Origin: Candidatus Thorarchaeota archaeon
Lineage (GTDB): Archaea > Asgardarchaeota > Thorarchaeia > Thorarchaeales > Thorarchaeaceae
Reading direction: 5' to 3'
DNA length: 19,269 bases
Assembly: GCA_048882325.1 (NCBI GenBank)
Contig: JBHLRS010000051.1
Span: forward strand, 1 to 19,269
Position numbers and translations under genes: made by a program. Of this stretch, positions 5,615 through 18,989 are shown one piece after another. The notes beneath the pieces are model-generated. The model made no database searches. It worked only from the letters and a program-made list of their open reading frames with translations, and was not told the DNA's origin. Every line of letters begins with the position of its first letter. Within the stretch, counting starts at the first letter, position 1.

Positions 5615-6565
5615 CTAAGCCTTCTTCTCTTTCTCATAGGGTACCGCTATTCCCTTTGGCGGGACTGATCTACGTATTCCTGCAAGAGCCACGATTACTA
5701 GAGCATAGGGAATTATCTTCACGAGATTTGTCAATGTGACAAGCTCAGGTAATAGGATTGGAAAAACAAACTGCAAGCCAGTTACAAAACCAAAGAAAAG
5801 TCCTGCAAGGAAGCAGCCAATAGGGGTCCAATTCCCAAAGATGAGGGCTGCTAATGCGATGAAACCCTTACCTGCAGTCATTCCTTTTCCGAAAGCATTC
5901 TCAAAACCGATGCTTAGGTAAGCGCCACCTAGACCTGCAAGAGCACCACTTATGACAACTCCAATCACGCGTGTCCACTCAACACTTACTCCCGCAGCAT
6001 CTAAAGTACTAGGATCTTCTCCTGCTGCTCTTATTCTGAGACCGAATGGAGTTCGATAGAGAACATACCAGCTCAAAGCTGTTATAATGAACATATAGTA
6101 GATTATCGGGGAGAGAGAACCAAAAGCAGTGCCAATCAATGGTACGCCTTGTATCTGAGGGATGACTACCTCAGGAATTCTTGTAACAGAATCAGAAAGA
6201 CCCTGTTTTCCCCAAACAACTTGCAAGCCCAGTGTTGTTGATCCCATTCCAAAGAGGATGATTCCGGTTCCACTCACAATGTGGTTTCCTTTAAACTTGA
6301 CACAGACTAACGCATGTGCTGCAGCGAGAGTTCCCCCAGCAATCATTGCTATTATCAGCCCAATCCAAGGGCTTCCTGTATAATATGTACCAGCTACAGC
6401 TGAGAAAGCGCCTACAAGCATCATACCTTCAAGACCTATGTTTACGACTCCAGTGCGTTCTGAGAACATTCCACCTAAAGCGGTCAAAACAAGGGGCGTT
6501 GCCATCTGCAAGGTAGCTTTCAGTAACCAACCCATTAGCTCCAGCATTGGGTCTCCTGTCTGCAT
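5615..6565 (-). CDS. Nucleoside/sugar (CUT2/Nup-type) ABC transporter permease 2
   Basis: ATPLVLTALGGMFSERTGVVNIGLEGMML, RTPFGLRIRAAGEDP, GKGFIALAALIFGNW, IPY. The start overlaps the upstream stop (TGATG at 6565). Confidence 0.93.
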   Translation of the reverse strand: MQTGDPMLELMGWLLKATLQMATPLVLTALGGMFSERTGVVNIGLEGMMLVGAFSAVAGTYYTGSPWIGLIIAMIAGGTLAAAHALVCVKFKGNHIVSGTGIILFGMGSTTLGLQVVWGKQGLSDSVTRIPEVVIPQIQGVPLIGTAFGSLSPIIYYMFIITALSWYVLYRTPFGLRIRAAGEDPSTLDAAGVSVEWTRVIGVVISGALAGLGGAYLSIGFENAFGKGMTAGKGFIALAALIFGNWTPIGCFLAGLFFGFVTGLQFVFPILLPELVTLTNLVKIIPYALVIVALAGIRRSVPPKGIAVPYEKEKKA

Positions 6566-8076
6566 CAGCCTTCACCTCCCGACTCATAAAGATCTTCTGG
6601 AAAGATCCTCGAACCTACAACGACTAGCAAGATGATAGTTATACCAAACACTAGACTCTGACCAACGATAACCATAACTCCTGCAACAATTCCCATTGCA
6701 GCAATGAGAAGCCATTCAATAGCTGCAAAAACAACAAGAATCACTCCCCGTCGACTTCTCGATGCGAGTTCAACAAGTGCAAACATACTGATAAGACTCG
6801 TTAAGAATAATAATAGCGCAATAGAACCTCCAGAGTTAGAAACGCTCGCATCCAACAATGAAGCATATGAACCAAAGAGTGTAAGACAGAAGATTGCTGA
6901 TGTTCCCGCCATACCCGTTGTAAACAGGTGGATAAATGCAGGAACACGATCTGTCCTCAGCCAGATAGCATAATCACTCCCTCTTTTTGCTAACCAGTCT
7001 ATTGCTTTTGGTGCTGCAATAAATAGAACAATCAGACCCTGAATAACTCGGACCATCTCCAAGGGAATCCCTGCAATTCGCTGCATCTGGATTCCACCTG
7101 TTCTGAGAGCACCAAAGAATATTGCTGCAGCTAGAACACCCCATGGATTATTGTTACCCAGCACAGCTACAGTTATCCCATCCCAACCAAGCCCAACTGA
7201 CCAGTTGTCTTGGAAAAGATGGTGGTAACCGAGAATCTCTCCTGATCCTCCCATTCCCGCTAAAGCTCCTGCAATGCCAAGAGCCAACGCGATATTCTTT
7301 TTGGGATTTATCCCAGCAGTTTCTGCTGCATCTTTATTCTGTCCCACAGCACGCATTTCATACCCGAGGACAGTTCGGTTGATTAAGTAATCAACTGCAA
7401 TCACAGCTAAAATGGCTACGATAAAGCTTGCATTTAGGAAGTAACCCACAAGTTTAGGCAACTCTGCAGTGGCTAATATTTCGGGAGTCCGATCAAGTGC
7501 TTGAGAGGTATCTTTCAGAGGATATGTAACTAACCATGCTGTGAACAGTATTGCTGAGTATGACATCATCATTGTAGTGACTACTTCATGTGTACCTCTA
7601 TATGCCTTTAATATTCCAGGAAGCAATCCATATAGAAATCCAGCAAACGCTCCGAAAAGTAGTGCTGTGATTTGGTGAATCACAATTGGCAGTGAAAACA
7701 TATACCCTATAATAGCTGCAGCCATTGCACCCATGTAGAGTTGCCCTTCTGGTCCTATGTTGAAAAGACCACACTTGAAAGCCAAAGCTACCGAGAGCCC
7801 TGTAAAGACAAGTGGTGTAGCAAAGAATAGAACCCTGTCAAATTGAGTAATGGCGCCATAGAGAAGAGTTAGAAATCCAAGTCCAACATTGTATCCTGTC
7901 ATCACCATTACTAACGCACCTACCACTAGTGCTAATATAATGGAACCAGTCGCCCAAATTGCAGTTTTATGAAACGAAGGATCAGATAATTTCTCAATCA
8001 TGTTATCATAGAAAAACCTCAGATCGAATTTGCCCTGTTCATCTGCATACTCTTCCTCAATTCTCTCCTCACTCAT
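6565..8076 (-). CDS. Nucleoside ABC transporter permease 1 with extra C-terminal TM region
   Basis: ATPLVFTGLSVALAFKCGLFNIGPEGQ, HEVVTTMM, GYEMRAVGQN..AA..AGI, GWDGITVAVLG. About 140 additional hydrophobic residues follow IIQG/VIQGLIVLF. ATGA overlap with the ATPase stop. Confidence 0.92.
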   Translation of the reverse strand: MSEERIEEEYADEQGKFDLRFFYDNMIEKLSDPSFHKTAIWATGSIILALVVGALVMVMTGYNVGLGFLTLLYGAITQFDRVLFFATPLVFTGLSVALAFKCGLFNIGPEGQLYMGAMAAAIIGYMFSLPIVIHQITALLFGAFAGFLYGLLPGILKAYRGTHEVVTTMMMSYSAILFTAWLVTYPLKDTSQALDRTPEILATAELPKLVGYFLNASFIVAILAVIAVDYLINRTVLGYEMRAVGQNKDAAETAGINPKKNIALALGIAGALAGMGGSGEILGYHHLFQDNWSVGLGWDGITVAVLGNNNPWGVLAAAIFFGALRTGGIQMQRIAGIPLEMVRVIQGLIVLFIAAPKAIDWLAKRGSDYAIWLRTDRVPAFIHLFTTGMAGTSAIFCLTLFGSYASLLDASVSNSGGSIALLLFLTSLISMFALVELASRSRRGVILVVFAAIEWLLIAAMGIVAGVMVIVGQSLVFGITIILLVVVGSRIFPEDLYESGGEG

Positions 8077-9665
8077 ACGAAAGCCTCCTCCCTACGCTGA
8101 TCAATCCCATGTCCTGCCATCAGCAAGCCCAGCTCTTCAGCAGTTGTTTCATTAGGAGTTTTCAAAGCAACAATCTGACCATCAAATATGACTGCTATTC
8201 GGTCCGCCACACTCAAAATCTCATCCAGTTCTGCTGACACCATTAAAATTGCCACACCATCATCTCTCATGGATACAAGCACATTGTGAATGTATTCTGT
8301 TGCCCCAACATCAAGTCCTCTAGTTGGTTGAGCAGCCAGAATCAGTTTTGGATTTCTTGCAAGTTCACGTGCAACTATGACCTTCTGCTGATTACCACCG
8401 GATAGCGTGCTGGCTAGACTATGAATATTGGATACCTTGATCGAGTAATCATAAACAAGTTGATCAGCAAGATTATCAGATTCGGATAGGTCTAATAACT
8501 GCATAGCAGGGCCCGTAGCATATGGAGGTTTGTGATGTATGCCCAGCGATGTATTTTCTGCAATAGTGAAACCAAGAATAAGTCCTCTTAGATGGCGGTC
8601 TTCAGGGATATGACTCACGCCAGATTCTCGAACTTCGCGTGGACTAAGACCAGTGATGTCAGCTCCGTTAAGCAGAATTTTTCCAGCTTTAGGTTTTAGC
8701 AGTCCCGCAATTGCTTCAACAAGCTCTGTCTGTCCATTTCCTTCAACACCCGCTATTCCAAGTATTTCTCCTGCTCTCACTTCAAGATTGATTCCTTTAA
8801 CTGCCGTGACCTTCCTCTTGTCTTCAACAACAAGATCATTGACAGAAAGGACAATGTTTCCCGGTGTTGCAGGACTCTTTTCGACCCTAAATACAACTGG
8901 TCTGCCAACCATCATTCTTGCTAATTCTTCAGGTGAGGTGTCTTCTTTGTTGACTGTCCCAATTAATTCTCCATCTCTAAGGACACTGATTCTATCAGCA
9001 AGTGCCATTGGCTCCCTTAGTTTGTGAGTGATCAGGATGATTGTACGACCACTCTCTTTAAACCGTTCAAGGGTAATAAAAAGGTCATCAACTTCTTGCG
9101 GTGTGAGGACTGAGGTTGGTTCATCAAGGATCAGAATATCTGCATTCCTATAGAGTGTCTTTATTATCTCTACTCTTTGTTGAAGACCAACTGAGATGTC
9201 CTGTATTTTCTCATTTGGTTCAATCTGAAGACCATTCTCTTCAGCGATTCTCTTTATTCTGGCTGCAGCACCTTTGAAATCAATCGGCAGAAGAGAACTC
9301 ATCATTTTTGCTCCCATGAGCTTTTCTGCACTAGCTCTTCTTAGAACTGGTTCAAGACCAAGAATTACATTCTCAGTTACTGTCAATGTTGGAATGAGCT
9401 TGAAATGTTGATGCACCATACCGACACCGCGAATGATTGCATCCTGAGGTGACTGAAGCTCTACCTCCTCCCCCTTGATTTTTATTATTCCGGAATCTTT
9501 CGAGAGAAAACCGTAAAGAATATTCATCAGCGTGGACTTTCCCGCCCCATTTTCACCCAACAACCCATGTACCTCACCCTCTCGTATCCTTAGGGTGATA
9601 TCCTTGTTTGCTTGGACTCCTCCGGGAAAGGTTTTCGAAATGTTCTCAAGCTCTACTGCGTAGAT
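8073..9665 (-). CDS. Nucleoside ABC transporter ATP-binding protein (two fused NBDs, ~530 aa); probable non-canonical ATC start at 9665
   Basis: Walker A GENGAGKS, Q-loop MVHQHF, ILILDEPT, LSGGNQQK, AAQPTRGLDVGA. The frame extends 34 codons upstream of the track's TTG (IYAVELENISKTFPGGVQANKDITLRIREGEVHG), the expected NBD N-terminus, to an ATC 6 nt after AGGAGGT. An in-frame TAG lies a few codons further upstream. Confidence 0.92.
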   Translation of the reverse strand: MYAVELENISKTFPGGVQANKDITLRIREGEVHGLLGENGAGKSTLMNILYGFLSKDSGIIKIKGEEVELQSPQDAIIRGVGMVHQHFKLIPTLTVTENVILGLEPVLRRASAEKLMGAKMMSSLLPIDFKGAAARIKRIAEENGLQIEPNEKIQDISVGLQQRVEIIKTLYRNADILILDEPTSVLTPQEVDDLFITLERFKESGRTIILITHKLREPMALADRISVLRDGELIGTVNKEDTSPEELARMMVGRPVVFRVEKSPATPGNIVLSVNDLVVEDKRKVTAVKGINLEVRAGEILGIAGVEGNGQTELVEAIAGLLKPKAGKILLNGADITGLSPREVRESGVSHIPEDRHLRGLILGFTIAENTSLGIHHKPPYATGPAMQLLDLSESDNLADQLVYDYSIKVSNIHSLASTLSGGNQQKVIVARELARNPKLILAAQPTRGLDVGATEYIHNVLVSMRDDGVAILMVSAELDEILSVADRIAVIFDGQIVALKTPNETTAEELGLLMAGHGIDQRREEAFV

Positions 9666-9741
9666 GGTAAGACCTCCTATTGGGCAGTCCTATAGGACGA
9701 GGAAAGCAGCAACTCCTATTTATCTCTGCCCAAATAAACTG

Positions 9742-9773
9742 AAAAAAGAAGAGGAGAGAGGCAAAAGCCTCTC
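9742..9773 (-). terminator. Hairpin plus pyrimidine/U tract downstream of the BMP gene (terminator or attenuator / mRNA-stabilising stem)
   Basis: GAGAGGC-TTTT-GCCTCTC (9773-9756) followed by TCCTCTTCTTTTTT on the minus strand, 7 nt after the BMP stop. Confidence 0.6.
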
Positions 9774-9780
9774 AGTTTTA

Positions 9781-10902
9781 CTAAGTCCAGTATATTACTT
9801 CAGGTACGGTTTCAACCCCATTTATGATGTCATCCTTCAGATCATTCACAATATCGATCCAAGACTGTGGAATGTCTAGTAATGGCGGATCGTATGGGAC
9901 GAGCTCATAGACTTGAGTCAGATTACTGAATGGTCGAAGACCACCAATCTCCCAACCCAGACCATTATTTGAAAGGTTGTAGACCTCAATGGTACCAGAT
10001 GTCTTATTCAAAGTCCCATCATGAGTGTCTTTGATAGCATCAAAAGCTGCAACATCCACTCTCTTCAACATACTAGTAAGTGCGAATGTTGGTGATGAAG
10101 CTCCTGCTGGATCATCATAGCTTGAAGTTCCAAACCACATTTGTGGCGAATCCACTCCAACCATCCACAGAGGAGTTGTGTTGGTTCCTGCATTGATCTT
10201 GTTTCTTGTTGCCGTCCATGCACCAATCCCAGATCTTCCTGCAGCCGCATAAATGATATCAACATCAGCTGCATGCATTGCATCAGCCAAATTTTGACCT
10301 ATTGCAGTGTCAACCCAGCTGTTGGTGTACTGTACTGTGAAGTTAACACCAGGATTGGTGTAGTTTGCACCCCACACAAAACCAGCTGCGAATCTGTGAA
10401 TCAGCCACATGTCTTCGCCACCAATAAAACCAACATTGTCAGTTTTGGTCATTAGACCTGCAAGAGCGCCAACAAGGGCAGATCCTTTTTGTTCCTGGAA
10501 AACGCAACTACGCACATTTGGCGCAATTACGACATTATCAATTATAGCAAACGTCTGGTTTGGAAAGTCAGCAGCAACCGCAGTTAACGCGTCAGCTTGA
10601 TCAAAACTACCACAAATGATGATTTCATATGTACCAGCCGCTGCATAGTCTCTAAGATATGTTTCAAACTCGGTTACCTGATCGGGCTCAGCTACATCAA
10701 AATTCCAGCCTAGCTCCGCTCTGGCTCTTAGTCCTCCTGCATAAGTACCGTCATTGAAACTGAGGTCACCTCTTCCTCCAGTTCCCAGTATGATAGCTAC
10801 TTTTGCGGGAGCAGGGAAGAGCATAGGACCCAGAAAGACTACAGCACCTAATCCAATGACAAGAATCACTATGAGAATGACCGCTGTTGTTCTTTGTTCC
10901 AT
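9781..10902 (-). CDS. BMP/PnrA-family (nucleoside) ABC substrate-binding protein, N-terminal membrane anchor, 373 aa
   Basis: GGRGDLSFND, F.EQKGSALVGALAGLMTKTDNVGFIGG, DIIYAAAGRSGIG, WMVGVDSPQ, LTSMLKRVDVA. The probable start is ATG 10902 (MEQRTT...), after GAGGTGGAGTGA, rather than the track's 10968. Confidence 0.92.
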   Translation of the reverse strand: MEQRTTAVILIVILVIGLGAVVFLGPMLFPAPAKVAIILGTGGRGDLSFNDGTYAGGLRARAELGWNFDVAEPDQVTEFETYLRDYAAAGTYEIIICGSFDQADALTAVAADFPNQTFAIIDNVVIAPNVRSCVFQEQKGSALVGALAGLMTKTDNVGFIGGEDMWLIHRFAAGFVWGANYTNPGVNFTVQYTNSWVDTAIGQNLADAMHAADVDIIYAAAGRSGIGAWTATRNKINAGTNTTPLWMVGVDSPQMWFGTSSYDDPAGASSPTFALTSMLKRVDVAAFDAIKDTHDGTLNKTSGTIEVYNLSNNGLGWEIGGLRPFSNLTQVYELVPYDPPLLDIPQSWIDIVNDLKDDIINGVETVPEVIYWT

Positions 10903-18342: not shown

Positions 18343-18394
18343 TTAATAATAAAAATTCAAGAGAAGTGTACTAGAACCTAACTAGTTAGGAGGT
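18343..18394 (+). promoter_or_regulatory. TATA-like box (TTAATAA), 14-bp palindrome CCTAACTAGTTAGG and SD GGAGGT for the rightward operon
   Basis: TTAATAA at 18343-18349, preceded by the purine-rich GCCAAAG; perfect palindrome at 18377-18390; GGAGGT at 18389-18394. Confidence 0.5.
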
Positions 18395-18401
18395 AAATGC
18401 T

Positions 18402-18989
18402 ATTTCATCATTTTCCAGCAAATACTTCGGTTGGCTCATTGCTCTAGTAATTGTCCTCGCTGGAAGTTGGTTCCTTTTGCCAGATGGTTATGAATCTTTG
18501 ATTGCCATCTTCGCGCCTCAGTTTGGTAATTACTTGAGGCCGACAGTCGTCTTGGTTAACCTCTTACTCGTCAATCCGATGAGTAATTTCACCATGATAG
18601 CGGTCTGGGCTGGAGCTGGCTTTGTGGGAGGAATGATGGCTGGAACTAAGAAGGGCGCCTTTGTTGTCGGTTTGATGACCTGGCTCTCTTGCTTTGTTCT
18701 CATAGCCCTGTGTATCTACCTGATTATACAGGGTGGTATAGCATTAGGGTCATTTGTCATTCCCCCAGGATCATCACTCGTTGATATTCTTGGGATTCCA
18801 ATATTTCAAGACCTAATTGACCAAGTGCTACCACTTATTTCAGGAGTTTTCGGCGGCGGTGGTGCATTTGACCCGACCTCACTGATGACACTTCTTCTGC
18901 CTTTCTTATTGTGGATACTGACACCAGCTGTTGTGGTCATAGTAGCTGCGATTGTTGGAGCAGTAGTCAGGCCAAAGGAGGACTTCTAG
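18402..18989 (+). CDS. Hypothetical multi-pass membrane protein (~195 aa); probable ATT start at 18402, or a 1-nt frameshift after ATG 18397
   Basis: The frame of the track ORF (18477) extends upstream through a clear TM helix (SSFSSKYFGWLIALVIVLAGSWFLL) to TAG 18387, with no ATG/GTG/TTG. ATT lies 7 nt after GGAGGT. The ATG at 18397 is out of frame and stops after 16 codons. Confidence 0.75.
   Translation: MSSFSSKYFGWLIALVIVLAGSWFLLPDGYESLIAIFAPQFGNYLRPTVVLVNLLLVNPMSNFTMIAVWAGAGFVGGMMAGTKKGAFVVGLMTWLSCFVLIALCIYLIIQGGIALGSFVIPPGSSLVDILGIPIFQDLIDQVLPLISGVFGGGGAFDPTSLMTLLLPFLLWILTPAVVVIVAAIVGAVVRPKEDF

Follow-up and report, generated by a model that had tools for sequence, protein, structure and literature searches.

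Introduction

Initiation at AUH (H = A, C or U) or CUG codons is a curiosity in bacteria, with two confirmed natural cases in Escherichia coli. In this organism, AUA, AUC, AUU and CUG yield 1-2% of the output of AUG, with an N-terminal Met (10.1101/063800), and in Staphylococcus aureus AUU and AUA placed behind extended Shine-Dalgarno (SD) sequences reach about 10% of AUG output (PMC13009471). As for archaea, reviews of initiation give AUG, GUG and UUG only (PMC7531240, PMC4705826), a ribosome profiling (Ribo-seq) study of Haloferax set near-cognate sites aside (PMC7261190), and no natural AUH or CUG start was found described in reviews and in the literature on Asgard and Thorarchaeota start codons. 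The present work deals with a 19,269-nucleotide stretch of Candidatus Thorarchaeota DNA (contig JBHLRS010000051.1 of assembly GCA_048882325.1, hereafter the window). On its minus strand lies the gene for the ATPase of an ATP-binding cassette (ABC) importer, which very probably begins at AUC and apparently has counterparts elsewhere in the genome.

NCBI translation table 11 permits ATT, ATC, ATA and CTG as alternative starts, and starts of this kind are occasionally annotated in bacteria. Common gene finders use ATG, GTG and TTG alone. A preliminary description of the window had proposed that the ATPase is initiated at AUC, that a second gene of the window follows a similar pattern, and that SD-guided AUH initiation may extend to the whole lineage, with gene callers truncating the genes concerned.

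Results

Locus, genome and sampling

The window corresponds to a whole contig (C51, 19.3 kb) of a Thorarchaeota metagenome-assembled genome (MAG; G000) of 3.6 Mb in 89 contigs, with 44% G+C and an estimated contamination of 4.3%. Orthologues of the ATPase were gathered from 24 genomes of the same genus and from named MAG records, the window's own copy being L001. LRSL01000063 (SMTZ1-45), a Candidatus Thorarchaeota MAG, is among the closest named records (84% protein identity), which makes the host a member of the Asgard archaea. Genome-to-genome comparison relied on G001, a congeneric genome of about 64% mean protein identity. No 16S rRNA gene was found when the contigs of the source MAG were searched, and the anti-SD sequence was taken from the literature, not from the MAG's own 16S.

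An AUC codon at the N-terminus of the ATPase

On the minus strand, an in-frame TAG (9692-9690) closes the ATPase frame upstream and is followed by GAC TGC CCA ATA GGA GGT CTT ACC, by ATC (9665-9663), the proposed initiation codon, and by TAC GCA GTA GAG CTT GAG AAC. The SD motif AGGAGGT (9672-9678) is complementary to the archaeal 16S 3' end and stands 6 nt before ATC, or 7 nt when counted from the GGAGG core. Genome-wide, the distance from GGAGG to ATG, GTG or TTG peaks at 7-10 nt, and the spacing in front of the ATPase falls at this optimum. From the upstream TAG down to TTG 9563-9561, which directly precedes the Walker A motif (P-loop) of the first nucleotide-binding domain (NBD1; G-E-N-G-A-G-K-S-T, 9531-9557), the frame holds no ATG, GTG or TTG. 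All these elements had been read in this way in the preliminary description, and re-reading found them exact. Started at ATC, the coding sequence (8073-9665, minus strand) comprises 530 codons and a TGA. The resulting 530-aa protein has tandem nucleotide-binding domains according to Pfam and NCBIfam profiles, with two ABC_tran (PF00005) domains, of which the first begins at residue 21, and a Walker A motif in both halves.

Comparison of this codon between related genomes, suggested earlier as a check, gave a clear result. All 13 clade-A orthologues carry ATH at the aligned position, namely ATC in ten (L001, L002, L003, L005, L015 and L016, together with the named MAG records L031, L032, L034 and L036), ATT in two (L018 and L033) and ATA in one (L043), and none carries ATG. 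GGAGG(T) is kept in all of them, with GGAGG lying 7-8 nt before ATH, and none has a usable canonical start; such a recurrence exceeds what chance would give. The picture differs outside this group: L013 reads ATG ATG ATT at the site; in a second clade of the gene, an ATG precedes E-Y-A-V-E-L by two or three codons; and homologues from Chloroflexota and Actinomycetota begin at an ATG placed 1-3 codons ahead of the aligned position.

These data bear directly on the possibility that the true codon is an ATG lost through an assembly or sequencing error, or that ATC marks a recent loss-of-function allele private to the source genome, either of which was named in advance as fatal to the proposal. 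A one-base error would indeed suffice, in a MAG of 89 contigs with the contamination given above, but ATC, ATT or ATA occupies the same codon in twelve further independent assemblies of different species. Moreover, the frame downstream is intact and under purifying selection, as judged from its substitutions, and no lesion is unique to the source assembly. We consider the chance of an error or of a private defective allele to be next to nil.

The public protein for the ATPase (P0002; 484 aa, 8076-9527) begins at M47, past Walker A, and hence lacks the P-loop. Public calls for the orthologues start at internal M, V or L residues or are extended from unrelated upstream codons, in line with the truncation by gene callers that had been predicted. 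A few public orthologue proteins do begin M-Y-A-V-E-L, at the very residue proposed here. Initiation further downstream, at TTG 9563 or ATG 9527, with codons 1-34 or 1-46 as an untranslated leader, would agree with the public call and with several of the orthologue calls, and these two are the only canonical codons available. However, TTG 9563-9561 is not conserved as a start: most orthologues have CTN (CTA, CTT or CTC) in its place and reach their first canonical codon 34-46 codons past ATH. Codons 2-34 (9564-9662), which encode the conserved N-terminal strand region of NBD1, also vary in the manner of coding sequence, with 10-20 synonymous and 2-5 non-synonymous differences from L001 per orthologue, and on this pattern they are under purifying selection; the leader upstream of the start has 22-57% ungapped identity with L001.

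The domain structure points the same way. A start at M47 would lose Walker A, and a start at L35 (the TTG) would remove the strand that precedes it, as anticipated in the preliminary description, which had expected a crippled protein; the family profiles cover both elements. In the full-length NCBIfam ATPase models (B6, AlsA, AraG, XylG, RbsA, GguA), residues 3-5 of the ATC-started protein match profile positions 2-8. Furthermore, no SD stands in front of TTG 9563 or ATG 9527. A downstream canonical start is, on this evidence, very unlikely.

Another unconventional route to the same N-terminus can be envisaged, either from an upstream non-canonical codon (ATA 9680, CTT or ACC) or by frameshifting or bypassing from a short upstream open reading frame (ORF). 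ATA 9680 is indeed in frame, and the sole out-of-frame TTG of the leader (9712) opens a 12-codon frame that terminates at the TAG overlapping the SD; the leader contains no out-of-frame ATG or GTG. ATA 9680, however, lies inside the SD itself and is replaced by TAA in L002 and L003, and TTG 9712, which GGAG abuts directly with no spacer, is not conserved. The codons that separate the stop from ATH vary from each orthologue to the next, and ATH alone is conserved there. In L015 and L033, the in-frame stop lies two codons before ATH, with a single codon between them, which leaves no room for an alternative start. Such a route thus appears highly improbable. Initiation at AUC 9665-9663 accounts for the orthologous ATH codons, the upstream stops, the purifying selection and the N-terminus of the profiles, and we hold with high confidence that the ATPase of this Bmp-type importer is translated from it; the comparative evidence excludes an assembly error, a private loss of function, a downstream start and an upstream alternative.

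Besides these features, four orthologues (L013, L015, L016 and L018, from G003, G012, G001 and G035, respectively) were seen to carry an insertion of about 75-90 residues in NBD1, at query residues ~117-122, and have open frames of 568-617 aa.

A second gene of the window with a probable ATT start

On the plus strand, the motif AGGAGGT (18388-18394) is followed after 7 nt by ATT (18402-18404), from which the coding sequence of a 195-aa membrane protein (18402-18989) runs. An in-frame TAG (18387-18389) overlaps the SD region; past ATT, no canonical codon occurs until TTG 18477, 25 codons further on. In the alignment of 22 genomes of the genus, the site reads ATT in 15 (in one of them directly before ATG), ATA in four, ATC in one and ACG in two, and in none of the 22 is it ATG, GTG or TTG. 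The SD does not vary among these genomes, and a conserved peptide, S-S-F-S-S-K-Y-F-G-W-L, follows directly on the start site. The second instance of the pattern, which had been pointed out from the window, is thus near-cognate in all 22 genomes. A frameshift route by way of an out-of-frame ATG beside ATT 18402 was considered and rejected, this ATG being present in some genomes only and not conserved. No Pfam or NCBIfam family was matched by the protein.

Probable near-cognate starts across the genome and the genus

To estimate how often a near-cognate start is required, stop-to-stop ORFs from 800 kb of G001 were paired with those of the whole of G000. Before filtering, the number of pairs was raised by shadow ORFs lying in other frames or on the other strand, and by alignments crossing a conserved SD or a weakly conserved leader. 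Once shadow ORFs had been removed and only alignments extending to the N-terminus of both partners were kept, 507 pairs were left. Most of the N-terminal extensions still apparent after filtering proved to be ordinary ATG starts and were set aside. An SD of at least 5 nt with a canonical start was found in 155 of the 507 pairs. In four others, the SD preceded a near-cognate codon (ATC, ATT, CTG and CTG) with no canonical start available, and the N-terminal extensions were strongly conserved (scores 37-177). A further five pairs had an SD and some other codon; their extensions were weak (scores 8-26), and the best reading is that translation begins at an ordinary start downstream. CTG was also seen in two or three additional pairs, behind SDs of 4 nt. 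In this survey, a near-cognate start is required in about 1% of genes overall and in about 2.5% of those led by an SD, a frequency which we call unusually high with reference to published bacterial figures.

Under strict criteria, the genome-wide list comprises 18 candidate near-cognate genes. Roughly 1-2% of the genes of the genus would start at AUC, AUU, AUA, CUG or, rarely, ACG behind an SD. The suggestion of lineage-wide SD-guided AUH initiation was therefore right in substance, as judged by orthologue and domain tests, but it has to be amended in that CUG and rare ACG are also used and that the phenomenon concerns only about 1-2% of genes. Among GGAGG-led genes of G000 at optimal spacing, ATG accounts for 55% of starts, GTG for 16% and TTG for about 29%. 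TTG is unusually common as a start in this genome.

A further retained ATC is that of a 429-aa vWA protein (contig C4, 58109-59395, minus strand; L182), in which GGAGG, an 8-nt spacer and ATC are found in 27 of 28 genomes of the genus. Its first 120 residues are 78-100% identical across the genus, and several genomes have no canonical codon for 63-75 codons. Two CTG-started genes, encoding a cytidylyltransferase (C1, 74867-75361, minus strand) and MTHFR (C32, 30392-31315, minus strand), have Pfam domains that the first canonical codon would cut. The CTG of the former stands two codons past the stop in about 18 genomes, and in others TTG, ATG or GTG occurs at or beside the site, an exchange which is the signature of a start codon; that of MTHFR is kept in nearly all of 24 genomes. 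In three other CTG candidates, the Pfam domain begins upstream of the first ATG, GTG or TTG, namely an acyltransferase (Acyl_transf_3; C20, 8890-9789, minus strand), an RNA methyltransferase (Methyltrn_RNA_3; C30, 10986-11840, plus strand) and a response regulator (Response_reg; C7, 63033-63407, minus strand). The gene of ribosomal protein eS25 has an apparent ATC start behind AGGAG (C36, 10798, plus strand; L276). Its S25 domain begins at residue 3, and no canonical codon occurs before residue 40. At about 295 codons, the open frame of this eS25 gene is far above the usual length of the protein and may reflect a fusion or a missed stop.

Several candidates were discarded. One on C4 (18073-19632) adjoins a run of N, a dsDNA_bind protein has a CTG that its domain does not call for, and CcmE, CDP-OH_P_transf and Na_Ca_ex candidates were ambiguous.

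The importer operon

The ATPase gene lies on the minus strand between the gene of a Bmp/PnrA-like substrate-binding protein (9781-10902; PF02608), with a probable ATG at 10902 behind GAGGTGGAG, and those of two permeases (both PF02653). The ATG of permease 1 (6565-8076) overlaps the TGA of the ATPase gene (ATGA), with GGGAGGAGG upstream. Permease 2 (5615-6565) likewise has an ATG that overlaps the stop codon (TGA) of permease 1 and is preceded by GGGAGGTGA. A tandem-NBD ATPase, a Bmp binding protein and two BPD_transp_2 permeases are the components of a CUT2/Bmp-type importer, and all were found here. The same arrangement is seen with RbsA, MglA and the putative B6 ATPases, characterised members of this group differing in that they use an AUG start where the ATPase of the window has AUC. 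The best-matching models are those of the putative B6 transporter (NF047927-NF047930), yet every subunit falls below the equivalog cut-off: 437 bits against 670 for the ATPase, 36.5 against 400 for the binding protein, and 162 against 400 and 168 against 465 for the permeases. With scores so far below the cut-offs, the subunits are not members of these families.

Between the binding-protein and ATPase genes, a GC-rich hairpin followed by a U-rich tract (9741-9773, minus strand) resembles a terminator or attenuator. The hairpin appears in both the minimum free energy and the centroid folds. The z-score of the whole leader is only -1.4, i.e. no better than shuffled sequences, and we therefore make no claim that the SD is sequestered. 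An AT-rich box, agataaata (~9722-9714), upstream of the ATPase is conserved in the two closest relatives. The hairpin might serve as a terminator or attenuator, and the box as an internal promoter.

Discussion

Proposed mechanism of initiation

From a mechanistic point of view, pairing of AGGAGGU with the 3' end of 16S rRNA would set the P site of the 30S subunit on AUC, where Met-tRNAi would pair with the first two bases, with a mismatch at the third position, and the 530-aa ATPase would begin with Met. AUH starts have proved weak in every case where their output was determined; with AUC, the ATPase is therefore probably made at a rate well below that of the binding protein, which is led by an SD and AUG, and the output of the permeases may be lowered relative to that protein as well. 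At the three AUH sites compared (the ATPase, the 195-aa protein and the vWA protein), AUG is absent over 13-28 species, although two of the sites vary in their third base, which suggests selection for a weak start.

Several observations weigh against this interpretation. The AUC start is deduced from sequence comparison. ATC, ATT and ATA are synonymous Ile codons and an internal Ile would fit the alignment equally, so that the case depends on the upstream stops and on the absence of any other start. Both permeases have an SD and AUG of their own, which makes the argument from stoichiometry uncertain. In vitro, aIF1 of Sulfolobus rejects AUU (PMC4705826); efficient use of AUH would thus need some tolerance at strong SDs in the Thorarchaeota lineage. 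Searches of the source MAG by ARAGORN with and without introns, by the Rfam tRNA model and by motif scans recovered no initiator tRNA.

Simple counting also gave little. Scored in the source genome alone (GGAGG at a spacing of 6-10, a frame open for 100 codons or more, a stop within 30 codons), ATH gave 11/93 at peak spacing and 9/90 off-peak, with no clear excess; once a codon-usage filter was added, the figures were 13/124 and 7/185, a modest signal. With so little excess, the scan against a shuffled background that had been advocated would be underpowered, and comparative and domain-based tests were used instead.

The AUH and CUG starts might instead be read by a dedicated component (a variant initiator tRNA, for example, or aIF1 or aIF2 of altered stringency), in which case the N-terminal residue would perhaps not be Met. 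A share of roughly 1-2% of genes, and three genes in which AUH has been strictly retained over 13-28 species, go beyond what is documented in bacteria. TTG reaches about 29% of GGAGG-led starts, and the initiator tRNA was not recovered for inspection. However, the codon set of NUG, AUH and rare ACG is the one-mismatch neighbourhood of AUG, exactly as expected for an ordinary CAU anticodon. Among the 31 tRNAs found in G000, the single CAU tRNA (C63) is of the elongator type, and no initiator-type anticodon stem with a non-CAU anticodon was found in the MAG, tRNA-Sec aside. The gene of aIF1 (SUI1; C3, 175131-175343, minus strand; L181) is present, with an ordinary GTG start 11 nt after AGGAG. 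We consequently regard a dedicated component as unlikely, and reading of the near-cognate codons by an ordinary Met-tRNAi as the better account. In passing, many tRNA genes of this MAG contain introns, some at non-canonical positions, and the aIF1 gene encodes an N-terminal Cys-rich, zinc-knuckle-like segment.

Possible significance for Asgard proteomes

Taking these elements together, we lean slightly towards a broader proposal, namely that Thorarchaeota, and perhaps Asgard archaea generally, may combine SD-led translation with a systematically widened set of start codons (NUG, AUH and occasional ACG), selection keeping weak codons at particular genes over tens of species. If this is true, at least 1-2% of Asgard proteins in databases would have wrong N-termini, some of them missing catalytic motifs; eS25, MTHFR and the cytidylyltransferase would, like the ATPase, be cut inside their domains when canonical starts alone are called. 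Asgard proteomes are heavily mined for eukaryote-like proteins, and systematic N-terminal errors therefore matter. A lineage with eukaryote-type initiation factors and conserved near-cognate starts would also offer a route to the evolution of start-codon stringency from archaea to eukaryotes. Finally, an operon in which the binding protein has an SD and AUG and the ATPase an SD and AUC would be a simple test case for stoichiometry set by start-codon choice.

Comparison with known systems

The AUU starts of infC (encoding IF3) and pcnB in E. coli are similar to the ATPase start in that AUH stands at the true N-terminus behind an SD, is conserved among relatives and supports weak initiation by Met-tRNAi (10.1101/063800; PMC4705826). 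They differ in being two genes of a bacterium, in which IF3 polices initiation and infC is autoregulatory. The present host, by contrast, is an archaeon with aIF1, aIF1A and aIF2; AUC is the probable start of a transporter ATPase unlinked to initiation fidelity, and about 1-2% of genes are concerned. As aIF1 itself starts at an ordinary GTG and the ATPase belongs to a transporter, an autoregulatory loop of the infC kind does not apply.

In eukaryotes, near-cognate initiation at CUG, ACG or AUU, under the control of eIF1 and eIF5, involves the same one-mismatch set of codons, and the aIF1/eIF1 family proofreads the start codon (PMC4705826). Eukaryotic sites are, however, selected by scanning in a Kozak context and mostly serve upstream ORFs or isoforms, whereas those described here would be fixed by the SD and be the sole start of the main ORF. 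Translation table 11 lists the codon set seen here, but merely permits these codons.

The AUU and AUA starts of infC, cvfC1, ccpN and citZ in S. aureus share with the present genes a strong, extended, start-proximal SD and conservation across species (PMC13009471). Four sites are known there, in a bacterial genome, from Ribo-Ret (PMC13009471), compared with at least nine in one archaeal genome, CUG included, which were verified by comparison or domain truncation. SD-led near-cognate starts are thus known in bacteria as rarities, and their probable conserved use at about 1% of the genes of this archaeon appears new.

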